Shown piece after piece: positions 54,444 through 57,400 of a DNA stretch of 64,000 bases (position 1 is the stretch's first letter; every line of letters starts with the position of its first letter). The stretch comes from Clostridia bacterium (GTDB lineage: Bacteria; Bacillota; Clostridia; UBA1212; UBA1255): contig JAFWZX010000020.1 of NCBI GenBank assembly GCA_017517275.1, forward strand, positions 6,289 to 70,288, in the 5' to 3' direction. The notes under the pieces were generated by a model. It was given only the letters and a program-made list of their open reading frames with translations. It was not told where the DNA came from and searched no databases. The position numbers and the translations under genes are program-made.

Positions 54444-57400
54444 ATGGCAGTAAAAATAATAAAGGCAATTACAATTGCCTCTGAAAAGAAAATAGTTATT
54501 ATGTTAGAAAGCGACTCGCCTCTTTCTAATAATGAGATACAAAGCATGCGCCGTCAATGGTCTGAGAAATTAAACTGTTCAAACGTAGAGATTGATATAA
54601 CGTACACCCATATGATGCCGGCGGGGCTTGAAGACGACTCTGTTCACGTAGATTTCAGTAAAGAAGCATATTTAGCAGCTCAACAAAAAAAGTCTGACGG
54701 TAACAAATCAGGCGCAAATTCTTACTATGCATCAAATACCAAAAAGGGATACTCGAATAAAGGTGATGGAAAGTATAACAAGAAAAAAGCCTTGACACCT
54801 GCTGAGGGAGAGGAACCTAAGAAAGACAGTGACGGAAACGTTATTTTCATGGGTAATTCTATTGATCAGGAAATAACAAAGATGGAGGATATCACTTACG
54901 ACAGCGGTTTTGTTGCCGTGGAAGGGAAGATATTTGCTTTTGACTCCAGAGAGCTCAAAAGCGGATCTCACAGTGTTACGTTTGCTATGACGGATAACAC
55001 GTATTCTGTAAAAATACAATTCTATGCAGAAGAATTTGACCTGAAATATGCAAAATCTTACCTCACACCGGGAAAAGGAAAAACAAAAGATGAGATGGGA
55101 AACGTTTACGCTCGCGTATACGGACAGGCGGTGTTGGACAAATATACTTCGGAATTGATTATCAGAGCAAAGTCTGTTGTGATGACAAAAAACAAGGTGC
55201 GTAAAGATTTATGTCCGGAAAAGAGAGTAGAATTACATTTACATACAAAAATGAGTGCTCAGGATGCCATTACAGACCCGGCTGCGTTAATAAGCTTGCT
55301 TGCCGGGTGGGGACACAAGGCTGTTGCGATAACAGACCACGGATGCGTACAGGCATATCCGGATATGTTTAAGGCTTTATCTGCCTATTCAAAAGCGAAA
55401 GATATTCCAAAAGAAGAACGAATTAAATTGATATACGGATGCGAATGTTATTTAAGTGACGATGAACTTATAGATCACGATTCGGATGAGATTCTGTCAA
55501 CGGTGCTAAGCAAGGAACAATTAAAGAATTCCAGAGCATGGCATTGCATAATCCTGGTAAAAAATCTGGTGGGTCTTAAGAATCTGTACAAACTCATTTC
55601 CTACAGTAATCTGAAATACTATTATAAAAGGCCAAGAATACCGCGTAAAGAACTTATGCTTCACAGAGAAGGCTTATTAATAGGCAGTGCGTGCTCGGAA
55701 GGTGAACTGTACGAGGCAGTATTAAACGGCACATCTGACGAAAAATTGCTTGAAATGGCGTCTTTCTACGACTATCTTGAGATACAACCCACGGGAAACG
55801 ACATGTATCTTTTAAGAAACAACCGTGTGTCCTCTGTGGAAGAATTGGAAAATATTAACCGCAAGATAGTATGGTTGGGAGATCAGCTGAGTAAGCTCAC
55901 CGTTGCAACAGGCGACGTACATTTCCTGAACCCTGATGACAGCATATACAGAGCGGTACTGCAAGGAGGACAGGGGTATAGCGACTGTGATATGCAGCCG
56001 CCCTTGTACTTAAAATCTACGGATGAAATGCTAAGTGAGTTTAAGTATTTAGGAGACAGGGCGTACGAGATTGTAGTAACAAACACAAATATAATAGCAG
56101 ATCAGATTGATGTAATAAGACCTGTGCCGGATGGCTTTTTCCCTCCTGTAATCGAAGGATCTGATCAAAAACTAAGAGAGAGTTGTTTTGAGAAGGCAAA
56201 GAGGATATACGGAGATCCTCTGCCTGACATCGTACAACAAAGATTGGAAAGAGAACTCAATGCTATTATCAGCAACGGCTATTCCATAATGTACATTACG
56301 GCAAAGGAACTGGTAGCAGAGTCAGCCCGGAACGGATACCAGGTAGGATCAAGAGGTTCGGTAGGTTCTTCCTTGGCAGCATACATGGCAGATATTACGG
56401 AGGTTAATTCACTGTGCGCTCATTATAGATGCGGCAATCCGGAATGTCTGTATTCGGAATTTCACGATGATCCGATTTACTCTTGCGGCTTTGATATGGA
56501 GCCTAAGGACTGTCCTAAATGCGGCCGTCCTCTTATACGCGACGGCTACAATATTCCATTTGAGACCTTTCTTGGGTTTAACGGAGACAAGGTCCCTGAT
56601 ATAGACTTAAACTTCGCCTCCGATGACCAGCCCAATGCTCATAAATTTACAGAAGTTCTGTTCGGTAAGGGCTACGTGTTCAGGGCCGGAACTATTGCCA
56701 ACCTTGGTGAAAAGCCTGCAAGAGGATACGTTCTTAAGTATATGGAAGCCCGCGGTAAAAAGGTCTCTGAAACAGAAATAAGCCGTCTTGCCAAGGGCTT
56801 TGAAGAAGTACGCAAGACAACGGGTCAGCATCCCGGCGGCATTATGGTTATTCCCAGAGATAAAGAAATATATGATTTTACTCCTGTTCAGCATCCTGCG
56901 GAAAAGGTAGAGAACGATACTGTAACAACGCACTTTGACTATAACTTCCTCCATGACAATATCCTGAAGCTTGATATTCTCGGTCACGATGGCCCGCAGA
57001 TGTTAAGGCTTATGGAGGAATATACAGGAATATCCAGCTTAAGTGTTGACATAAACGATGACAAGGTTTTGTCCCTTTTCAACAGTGCCGAAGCGCTTGA
57101 CTTAGATGAAGGTATAATTCAAAGATTAGGTGCAGACTATGAGCTTTTGCAACTTGGAACTGCCGGAATTCCGGAGATGGGTACAGGCTTTGTCCAAAAT
57201 ATGATGCTCAAAGCAAGACCGTCTACTATTTCCGACTTGGTCAGAATATCAGGTGTATCTCACGGAACGGACGTATGGGCGGGTAATGCAGAGACCTTGA
57301 TAGATGAGGGAATCTGTCAGCTGTCCGAATGTATATGTTGCCGTGATGACATAATGCTCTATCTTATAGGAAAAGGCCTTGAAAAGAAAATGGCATTTGA

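Follow-up and report, generated by a model that had tools for sequence, protein, structure and literature searches.

A DnaQ-like 3'-5' exonuclease of the DEDDh type, inserted in the PHP domain, is a hallmark of the PolC replicases. The PHP loop examined below is the site of this insertion in PolC; in Mycobacterium tuberculosis DnaE1 the PHP site is itself the exonuclease, and Geobacillus kaustophilus PolC, in which one PHP ligand is mutated, has no PHP exonuclease activity (PMC5636811). Most Clostridia have been credited with three "active" proofreaders, and DnaE3 and many PolCs of Bacilli, which have another proofreader, have let the PHP site decay (PMC12926913). A C. thermocellum PolC in which the PHP cysteine ligand is changed (C669Y) is an approximately 30-fold mutator (bioRxiv 10.1101/2021.07.30.454558).

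PolCs that naturally lack the exonuclease (exo-less PolCs below) were described by Timinskas et al. (2014), who found that 6% of PolCs have no Exo insertion and that all of these come from Clostridia or Negativicutes, save one extra PolC copy in Thermotogae; in Clostridia and Negativicutes the genome has no PolC besides the exo-less enzyme, which is accompanied by a typical DnaE1 (PMC3919608, Table S2). Whether DnaE1 serves as the main polymerase of these genomes is a point on which they did not decide (PMC3919608), and our literature search found no later study dedicated to exo-less PolCs. The gene analysed here, for which the original prediction implied novelty, is a real yet ordinary example of this known variant, the architecture having been catalogued since 2013 and being already present in the survey of Timinskas et al. 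The architecture itself adds nothing new; on the functional side, we know of no biochemical study of an exo-less PolC.

Identity and domain structure of the polC gene

The window (the whole 64-kb stretch of DNA that was analysed) carries at 54444..58061 an open reading frame whose 1205-aa translation is an exo-less PolC-type DNA polymerase III alpha subunit; this and all other features described below lie on the + strand unless stated otherwise. The product scores 1333.8 bits against the NCBIfam PolC equivalog NF001688 (cut-off 873) and 1200.8 bits against TIGR01405 (cut-off 1043.45), its residues 142-1203 align with G. kaustophilus PolC 3f2b (E=1.8e-280), and Pfam identifies PHP, DNA_pol3_alpha, finger and HHH_6 domains in it. 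The alignment to 3f2b is contiguous because there, too, the exonuclease is replaced by a short linker. The deletion is man-made in the G. kaustophilus PolC construct (3F2B/3F2C/3F2D) and natural in this one, and the engineered protein shows that the exonuclease is a separable module.

In DnaE the OB fold lies C-terminal to the PHP domain. Here it is N-terminal to PHP, at residues ~142-250 (54867..55193), where the product aligns with the OB region of 3f2b and the AlphaFold2 (AF2) model has beta-barrel-like strands with pLDDT of about 90; the call rests on that alignment and those strands, PF01336 (OB) being undetected by Pfam. The Pol3 catalytic core of palm, thumb and fingers (56166..57437; Pfam DNA_pol3_alpha E=4.9e-52, finger E=6.4e-20) has the catalytic aspartates D719, D721 and D844 and the motifs PDIDLNF and KLDILGHD, whose columns are nearly invariant in two alignments of relatives (A1 and A2). 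A four-cysteine zinc module, HYRCGNPEC...CPKCG (residues 660-694, 56421..56525), aligns with HYVCPNC...CPRCG of 3f2b and differs from it in the first cysteine pair, which is C-x4-C here and C-x2-C there. The C-terminal (HhH)2 domain occupies residues 1110-1195 (57771..58028; Pfam HHH_6 E=1.3e-11), and it is followed at residues 1198-1202 (58035..58049) by SISIF, a putative beta-clamp-binding motif that comparison of C-terminal tails marks as a variant of Q[LMI]SLF, the tails of relatives reading QLSLF, QMSLF or QISLF.

The gene is under strong purifying selection: in comparison with its orthologue in the nearest relative (locus L001), pN is 0.095 for the whole gene and pS, which is saturated, is 0.83, and the linker described below, which has pN 0.106 against pS 0.85, is no exception.

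The polC gene stands in a housekeeping neighbourhood, mutS / mutL-miaA-polC ... recJ. We find mutL at 51644..53503 (Pfam MutL_C, DNA_mis_repair), miaA at 53494..54441 (Pfam IPPT) and, on the - strand, mutS at 47338..49968 (Pfam MutS domains I-V), so that Pfam bears out the mutL-miaA-polC context originally described. Judged from ORF sizes, the order mutL-miaA-polC-RR-HK-recJ recurs in the nearest relative. No dnaE was found by Pfam among the larger ORFs of the 64-kb window. The genes of the window tend strongly to be oriented with the GC skew, as is usual in genomes that have PolC, an observation that is only suggestive.

The exonuclease domain is missing

The interval in which the original prediction placed the excision, 55430-55560, corresponds to residues 329-373 of the product, and both of the flanking segments that it named, IKLIYGCECYL and a further segment of 30 residues, are present in the ORF. 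RNase_T (PF00929) has no match in the 1205-aa product even at E<=1. The NF001688 match is split in two, its main stretch running from query residues 348-1203 to profile positions 597-1445, and the exonuclease part of the profile (positions ~400-596) is skipped. Likewise, alignment to the full-length PolC 9qpc covers chain residues 360-445 and 622-835 and passes over the exonuclease. An in-house exonuclease HMM, built from 50 clostridial PolC exonuclease domains and giving 321.6 bits with its positive control, has no match in the product at E<=100, and its best match in the six-frame translation of the 64-kb window reaches only E=0.13. A cryptic or degenerate exonuclease remnant is thereby excluded in the ORF, in the six frames and in the larger ORFs of the window (Pfam at E<=1, NCBIfam and the exonuclease HMM), and the same searches (exonuclease HMM in six frames, Pfam on the larger ORFs) find no DEDDh domain anywhere in the 64 kb. 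The predicted lack of the domain is therefore confirmed by Pfam, NCBIfam, the in-house HMM and the 9qpc alignment: this PolC is truly without a DEDDh exonuclease, and the module has been removed precisely between the fifth and sixth PHP ligands.

These two ligands, E334 and H367, normally flank the insert; ligand spacing shows them separated here by 32 residues. In place of the ~190-aa DEDDh domain there is an acidic 32-residue linker, CYLSDDELIDHDSDEILSTVLSKEQLKNSRAW (residues 335-366, 55446..55541). Its AF2 pLDDT differs between two runs, being 87-92 in one and about 54 in the other.

We also asked about the surroundings of related genes, using the best 80 of 263 related GTDB polC loci (1.43 Mb). 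By accession prefix no assembly occurs twice among these 80, a weak sign against a second polC in such genomes. The only matches to the exonuclease-domain HMM in them are the 20 exo-containing polC ORFs themselves. Relocation of the exonuclease to a neighbouring gene is accordingly rejected, none being found within ~10 kb of the 60 related exo-less polC genes.

Distribution among relatives and comparison with named PolCs

The best matches in the searched collections have 82-86% identity, and the genomes closest to this one are MAGs of Oscillospiraceae, Clostridia, Ruminococcaceae and Acutalibacteraceae, from 82% down to 45% identity. When the query and the 120 database sequences most like it are aligned, the equivalents of E334 and H367 prove to be bimodally spaced: 13-32 aa in 71 of the 121 sequences and 204-216 aa in the other 50, with none between. 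An exonuclease-domain match is absent from 60 of the best 80 of 263 GTDB polC loci, and these include Oscillospiraceae and Acutalibacteraceae MAGs, Mageeibacillus and the cultured Lentihominibacter faecis. The deletion is therefore lineage-wide; the exo-less state is common to many related lineages, and uncultured Oscillospirales of the gut very often have a PolC of this kind.

A parsimony count of exonuclease losses in clostridial PolCs gives 3-7 events in 100 of 100 bootstrap neighbour-joining (NJ) trees; the PolC tree has very short internal branches, and it is the event count rather than the topology that we report. The count suggests that exo-less forms arose at least three times, in which case this PolC may not share its deletion event with that of Acidaminococcus.

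Acidaminococcus fermentans DSM 20731 PolC (YP_003399045, 1191 aa), of similar length, has the same NTD, OB, PHP, Pol3 and HhH arrangement without an Exo insertion. It and this PolC both have all nine PHP ligands (HHDHEHCDH), and each ends in a motif of the clamp type, which in this PolC is putative. The hosts differ, Acidaminococcus belonging to the Negativicutes whereas the present host is Oscillospiraceae-like. In addition, the subclade of the query differs from Acidaminococcus PolC in being without NTD subdomain II, in having a KKxLTPxEGEE motif and in the acidic linker, which is 11 residues longer. With a PolC-group polymerase, no Exo insertion, a Clostridia-type host and nine of nine PHP ligands, the present enzyme agrees with the published exo-less PolCs. 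Canonical PolCs (B. subtilis type; clostridial P0051 and P0079; 9QPC) are 53-56% identical to it over the shared ~70% of the query, and their OB, PHP, Pol3, zinc and HhH modules are organised in the same way; in contrast, they have a DEDDh-containing insert of 204-216 residues between the fifth and sixth ligands as well as detectable NI and NII domains.

The PHP domain

Pfam recognises the PHP domain at residues 263-442 (E=4.8e-27). Its N-terminal part (residues 262-334, 55227..55445; Pfam and ligand mapping) supplies H265, H267, D274, H299 and E334, and its C-terminal part (residues 367-560, 55542..56123; ligand mapping, AF2 and Foldseek) supplies H367, C417, D491 and H493, so that all nine metal ligands of the signature HHDHEHCDH are in place. 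An AF2 model of residues 255-560 (pLDDT 93.3, pTM 0.91) is a closed fold that resembles solved PolC and DnaE PHP domains in Foldseek, the top matches being the PolC structures 9qrl and 3f2c (TMq 0.80-0.86). It superposes on the G. kaustophilus PHP domain with TMq 0.80 and rmsd 2.1-2.4 A. The eighth ligand is Asn in G. kaustophilus (VATGNVHYL) and Asp in this PolC (VATGDVHFL).

The nine ligands align with H14, H16, D23, H48, E73, H107, C158, D226 and H228 of M. tuberculosis DnaE1 (5LEW/7PU7), where 33 residues separate the fifth ligand from the sixth (E73..H107), compared with 32 here, and the linker aligns with this stretch. The two folds superpose with TMq 0.71, at low sequence similarity (E about 1e-10). 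M. tuberculosis DnaE1 belongs to a different polymerase group, with its OB fold C-terminal and no zinc module, and the exonuclease activity that is proven for its PHP site is only inferred for this PolC.

HHDHEHCDH is kept in 70 of the 71 exo-less sequences (the query being one of the 71), and it is also intact in 50 of 50 exo-containing clostridial PolCs. The intact site is therefore the group's ground state rather than something that specifically makes up for the lost exonuclease. C669 of C. thermocellum PolC corresponds to C417 of this PolC; the mutator phenotype of C669Y lends PHP proofreading by PolC indirect support, but it could be due to structural destabilisation rather than to lost PHP catalysis.

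The N-terminal region

The original prediction held that all other PolC modules are intact. This is so for the OB fold, PHP domain, zinc module, Pol3 core and HhH domain, and is not so for the N-terminal domain, in which Pfam NI and NII (PF14480, PF11490) have no match and which is truncated: in BLASTP, query residues 65-261 align to residues 163-356 of the sister sequence P0015, and ~95 P0015 residues, corresponding to NTD subdomain II, have no counterpart. The first 56 residues (54444..54611) are conserved within the subclade made up of the query and P0001-P0012; by visual similarity they may be a remnant of NTD subdomain I, although BLAST does not align them significantly with the NTD of P0015. 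A low-complexity spacer (residues 57-111, 54612..54776) stands in place of subdomain II according to the BLASTP alignment with P0015, and its modelled part, residues 100-111, has AF2 pLDDT below 50.

Just before the OB fold is a clade-specific motif, NKKKALTPAEGEEPKKDSDGNV (residues 112-133, 54777..54842), recognised by regular expression and alignment. The expression [LIVM][TSA]PxEGxE matches 32 of the 71 exo-less sequences and 0 of the 50 exo-containing PolCs, the matches listed all being among the query's closest relatives (the query and P0001-P0042). In alignment A2 the motif hardly varies at its T, P, G, E and D positions.

How might an exo-less PolC achieve fidelity?

The explanation that we favour, with moderate confidence, is that this is a functional exo-less PolC (NTD-OB-PHP-Pol3-HhH) whose PHP site does the editing, DnaE1 and mismatch repair standing behind it. 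The exonuclease module has been removed from the PHP loop, leaving the 32-residue loop, whereas the zinc module, the HhH domain, the core of the polymerase and a putative clamp-type motif are retained. Proofreading in cis would then fall to the PHP domain, whose nine ligands match the trinuclear 3'-5' exonuclease centre of M. tuberculosis DnaE1; an active PHP domain was among the options first proposed, and the nine ligands are consistent with it. Loss of the DEDDh domain would be possible because clostridial PolC plus DnaE1 systems normally have three candidate proofreaders, namely the PolC PHP domain, the PolC DnaQ domain and the DnaE1 PHP domain. Extra fidelity would come from a DnaE1 encoded elsewhere in the genome and from the MutS and MutL seen in the window. 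We know of no PolC for which PHP exonuclease activity has been demonstrated; an invariant PHP site in 70 of 71 sequences, recurrent and precise loss of the exonuclease, and a relocated exonuclease gene that was sought and not found together give the rationale for testing PHP-based proofreading by PolC.

A stronger form of this idea, which we hold as possible but doubtful, is that in the Oscillospiraceae-like subclade PolC has reverted to a DnaE1-style enzyme with the PHP trinuclear site as its only cis proofreader. If true, PHP-based proofreading would for the first time be shown for PolCs, and these proteins would offer a natural system for dissecting the division of labour in PolC plus DnaE1 replisomes. 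The same subclade has also lost NTD subdomain II, gained the acidic 32-residue PHP loop and carries KKxLTPxEGEE before the OB fold, a motif that could recruit a further partner. In length the loop equals, to within one residue, its mycobacterial counterpart, which lines the groove of the PHP exonuclease.

Could the role of PolC instead be reduced? DnaE1 with an active PHP proofreader would then be the main high-fidelity replicase, and the exo-less PolC would have a subsidiary job for which no proofreader is needed. Timinskas et al. raised this alternative, pointing out that clostridial DnaE1 has all the features that a self-sufficient replicase needs, that DnaE1 is all that some Clostridia have, and that exo-less PolCs are without exception clostridial (PMC3919608). 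The truncated N-terminal domain and the non-canonical SISIF clamp motif fit relaxed constraint as well. However, the strong conservation of this polC (low pN), its intact catalytic residues, zinc module and HhH domain, the retention of PolC in many exo-less lineages and, more suggestively than firmly, the co-orientation of genes with GC skew all argue against a minor role, and we consider it unlikely.

Proofreading in trans, by a separately encoded DnaQ-like DEDDh exonuclease that binds this PolC, seems improbable to us. The E. coli DnaE has such a trans proofreader in epsilon. Stand-alone DnaQ homologues are common, with more than 3 per bacterial proteome on average (PMC12926913), and the conserved clade-specific motif at residues 112-133 occurs in exo-less sequences only. 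Against this, neither the 64-kb window nor the ~10 kb around the 60 exo-less polC genes holds a DEDDh domain. Nor do we know of a DnaQ-like trans partner for any PolC, which also counts against such an arrangement.

That PolC does no replicative proofreading at all, fidelity resting on base selection and MutS/MutL at the price of a higher mutation rate, we regard as very improbable. The mutS and mutL genes do lie immediately upstream of polC, and the cost seems tolerable given that exonuclease loss appears to be recurrent; but retention of the nine ligands in 70 of 71 exo-less PolCs argues that the PHP site is used, and that site has decayed in DnaE3 and in many Bacilli PolCs, which have another proofreader (PMC12926913). 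Finally, we found nothing in favour of an assembly error, an artefact of frameshifting or a pseudogene in decay. Such readings are refuted by the continuous reading frame, by recurrence of the architecture in dozens of assemblies made independently and in isolates grown in culture, by purifying selection that includes the linker and by a PHP domain confidently modelled as a closed fold, so that the original view of polC as a functional gene holds.

That exo-less PolCs are so common in gut Oscillospirales has a bearing on estimates of mutation rates. The drugs now being developed against PolC have the polymerase and not the exonuclease domain as their target. In NCBI annotation exo-less PolCs are routinely named "PolC-type DNA polymerase III".

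Absence of the exonuclease domain from PolC

The polC gene (54444..58061, + strand) is one unbroken ORF encoding 1205 amino acids, and the original prediction was that the DEDDh 3'-5' exonuclease normally inserted in the PHP domain had been excised from it at 55430-55560. That interval corresponds to residues 329-373 and reads LIYGCECYLSDDELIDHDSDEILSTVLSKEQLKNSRAWHCIILVK. Pfam matches comprise PHP (residues 263-442), DNA_pol3_alpha, the finger domain and HHH_6, and neither RNase_T (PF00929) nor any other exonuclease family is found in the protein even at E<=1. The protein clears both NCBIfam PolC equivalog cut-offs, with 1333.8 bits for NF001688 (cut-off 873) and 1200.8 bits for TIGR01405 (cut-off 1043.45); the match is split, and since its main stretch pairs residues 348-1203 with profile positions 597-1445, the exonuclease-holding part of the profile is skipped. 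The polymerase itself is intact: the catalytic aspartates D719, D721 and D844 are present, the (HhH)2 domain is intact by Pfam, and so is the four-cysteine zinc module (56421-56525), whose first cysteine pair is C-x4-C (CGNPEC) rather than C-x2-C. At the extreme C-terminus SISIF (58035-58049) stands at the clamp-type motif, which reads Q[LMI]SLF in relatives. These relatives are named 'PolC-type DNA polymerase III' at NCBI; the nearest genome matches to the locus are 82-86% identical, and the source is an uncultured Oscillospiraceae-like bacterium.

In an alignment of the protein with its top 120 database relatives, we counted the residues between the flanking PHP ligands E334 and H367. The spacing is strictly bimodal, being 13-32 residues in 71 of the 121 sequences (32 in the protein studied here) and 204-216 in the other 50; the deletion is thus shared by many relatives. 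An HMM built from the exonuclease inserts of the 50 exo-containing relatives (positive control, 321.6 bits) gives no match to our PolC at E<=100, and when run on every six-frame segment of the 64-kb window it returns nothing above noise (best E=0.13). The nearest genome is an Oscillospiraceae MAG (locus L001), whose orthologue is 85.6% identical to our PolC at the amino-acid level. Synonymous sites between the two are saturated (pS 0.83), whereas pN is 0.095 over the whole gene and 0.106 in the 32-residue linker, so that gene and linker alike are under purifying selection; this comparison argues for a working gene. Assembly error, frameshift and pseudogene are excluded. The predicted absence of the exonuclease is thus confirmed, and the wider interpretation holds in part, namely for a functional gene, a clean excision and PHP as a plausible proofreader.

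Anatomy and probable recurrence of the deletion

In exo-containing relatives the interval runs from ...YG-x-E through CYLxDDxVPxV, the DEDDh domain and DYKKAxTY to HxIILVKN. The exo-less proteins retain just its first 5-7 and last 8-10 residues, so the whole module was removed cleanly, with two connector stubs left behind. Several distinct linker families occur among them. Most of the closest relatives of our PolC carry a 21-residue linker, CYL[CT]D..(P/G)E.T.E(E/Q)AKK.PSW; our PolC and database relative P0001 have 32 residues by virtue of an additional 11-residue acidic segment; another exo-less set (P0087, P0093 and their relatives) has 25, and the remaining sequences 13-23. Neighbour-joining (NJ) trees from 881 shared columns require a minimum of 4 gain or loss events for the exonuclease, and bootstrapping of a 36-sequence non-redundant set gave 3-7 events in 100 of 100 replicates, never 1 or 2. 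Recurrent independent loss is therefore likely, a grade set by the short internal branches and the simplicity of the NJ method.

The exo-less architecture is already catalogued, and our protein is a further member of a known variant rather than the novelty that had been implied. Timinskas et al. (PMC3919608) found exo-less PolCs exclusively in Clostridia and Negativicutes, except for one extra PolC copy in Thermotogae, and in all of these clostridial and negativicute genomes PolC is accompanied by DnaE1. Their Table S2 lists NTD-OB-PHP-Pol3-HhH as the sole PolC beside a typical DnaE1 in 9+1+1+1 genomes, and their Table S1 gives a 9/9 PHP signature for, among others, the Acidaminococcus fermentans (1191 aa) and A. 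intestini (1210 aa) enzymes. The same authors had already raised DnaE1 as a possible main replicase in such genomes, and the assignment of that role to this PolC is not supported. A literature search beyond that study turned up neither a later paper devoted to exo-less PolCs nor any biochemical work on one. What retains interest is the possibility of PHP proofreading, the apparent recurrence of exonuclease loss and several subclade-specific extras, namely the longer acidic loop, a loss from the N-terminal domain (NTD) and a conserved motif before the OB fold.

The N-terminal region

The N-terminal domain had been described as intact, and this was wrong. The region before PHP (residues 1-261; 54444-55226) has 261 residues against a median of ~335-340 in relatives, a shortfall of ~75-95 residues. 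BLASTP against relative P0015 pairs just residues 65-261 with P0015 residues 163-356, and on this basis NTD subdomain II (~95 residues relative to P0015) appears to be deleted. The shortfall is common to the subclade made up of our PolC and P0001-P0012, where a low-complexity spacer stands instead; the protein would thus be a PolC minus two modules, not one. A conserved basic/acidic motif, KKKALTPAEGEEPKKDSDGN (residues 112-133; 54777-54842), immediately precedes the OB fold. A strict regular expression for it matches 32 of the 71 exo-less PolCs and none of the 50 exo-containing ones, and among the matches listed all are the closest relatives of our protein (itself and P0001-P0042). This motif may be a partner-binding site.

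The PHP site as candidate proofreader

None of the nine PHP metal ligands is missing (H265, H267, D274, H299, E334, H367, C417, D491 and H493; HHDHEHCDH). They correspond one-for-one to H14, H16, D23, H48, E73, H107, C158, D226 and H228 of M. tuberculosis DnaE1, and the fifth and sixth ligands are separated by 32 residues here and by 33 there. The trinuclear zinc centre of the mycobacterial enzyme is its proofreading exonuclease (PMC5636811), and the suggestion that PHP could proofread in our PolC is plausible from this residue-level match. The signature is equally intact in all 50 exo-containing relatives, so it permits PHP proofreading but is no mark of compensation. A confident AF2 model of residues 255-560 (pLDDT 93.3, pTM 0.91) superposes on solved PHP domains of PolC (TMq 0.80-0.86) and DnaE (TMq ~0.71-0.75); the predicted linker conformation is not robust, with pLDDT 87-92 in one run and ~54 in a second with a different alignment.

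Comparison with PDB structures agrees with the absence of the exonuclease. Residues 142-1203 align contiguously (E=1.8e-280) with 3F2B, a crystal construct of G. kaustophilus PolC that has a short linker where the exonuclease would be. The PHP region of full-length PolC 9QPC aligns as chain residues 360-445 and 622-835, with ~176 residues skipped relative to our protein. Both structures have Asn at the eighth ligand position, where ours has Asp; G. kaustophilus PolC, with one PHP ligand mutated, is without PHP exonuclease activity, and the DEDDh domain of PolC sits in a loop adjoining the PHP active site (PMC5636811). The C. thermocellum PolC mutation C669Y, which alters the Cys ligand equivalent to C417 (bioRxiv 10.1101/2021.07.30.454558), lends in-vivo support to a role in fidelity for the PHP site of a clostridial PolC. 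According to a 2026 survey of bacterial polymerases, three 'active' proofreaders (PolC PHP, PolC DnaQ domain and DnaE1 PHP) are usual in Clostridia, whereas PHP domains are often inactive in PolC+DnaE3 (Bacilli-type) systems (PMC12926913). Such redundancy could make the DEDDh module expendable specifically in Clostridia and Negativicutes. The best explanation, which we hold at slightly better than even, is a functional PolC that would edit at its PHP site, with a presumed DnaE1 and MutS/MutL as back-up for its fidelity. The analysis shows the intact polymerase, the missing exonuclease and the complete PHP site; PHP catalysis, a DnaE1 in the genome and a division of labour between the polymerases are inferred.

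Gene neighbourhood and other features of the window

The housekeeping neighbourhood runs mutS (47338..49968, - strand), nucleoside hydrolase, mutL, miaA, polC, OmpR-type response regulator and histidine kinase, recJ, and in L001 the genes mutL to recJ follow in the same order, as judged from ORF sizes. No dnaE or DnaQ-like gene lies within the 64-kb window. Transfer of the exonuclease domain to a neighbouring gene was ruled out by scanning the best 80 of 263 related loci (1.43 Mb) with the exonuclease HMM, which matched just the 20 exo-containing polC ORFs; the surroundings of the 60 exo-less genes, out to ~10 kb, held no stand-alone exonuclease.

Further genes in the window are those for polA, a UvrD-type helicase, PNPase, FtsH, a V-type ATPase operon, purL and other metabolic genes. 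GC skew is positive over almost all of 1-64000 and ~40 of the 47 ORFs of >=150 aa are on the + strand, so this is a leading-strand window with strong gene co-orientation, typical of PolC-containing genomes. Pol I (20357-23176, + strand, 939 aa) carries a polymerase domain and a 5'-3' exonuclease domain; the domain between them shows only a partial match to PF22619 (DNA_polI_exo1, 'DNA polymerase I, ribonuclease H-like domain'), and at E<=1e-5 the listing lacks PF01612, the classical 3'-5' exonuclease family. A fusion of an RNase H domain (PF00075, E=1.3e-42) with a NUDIX hydrolase domain at the C-terminus (E=3e-16) is encoded by a 336-aa ORF (40751-41761, + strand). At E<=1e-3, four ORFs of 270-360 aa match no Pfam family or give weak P-loop hints only: 16753-17589 (+), 42661-43473 (+), which comes after an ABC ATPase gene, 43817-44635 (-) and 19346-20431 (-). 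Finally, a clostridial exo-less polC stands on the contig of related locus L021 (JAGAPR010000093.1), which is binned as 'Prevotella sp.'. Its match coordinates are the same as those of L020, a Clostridia MAG locus from the same water-deer project, so the contig was probably misbinned in the public MAG.
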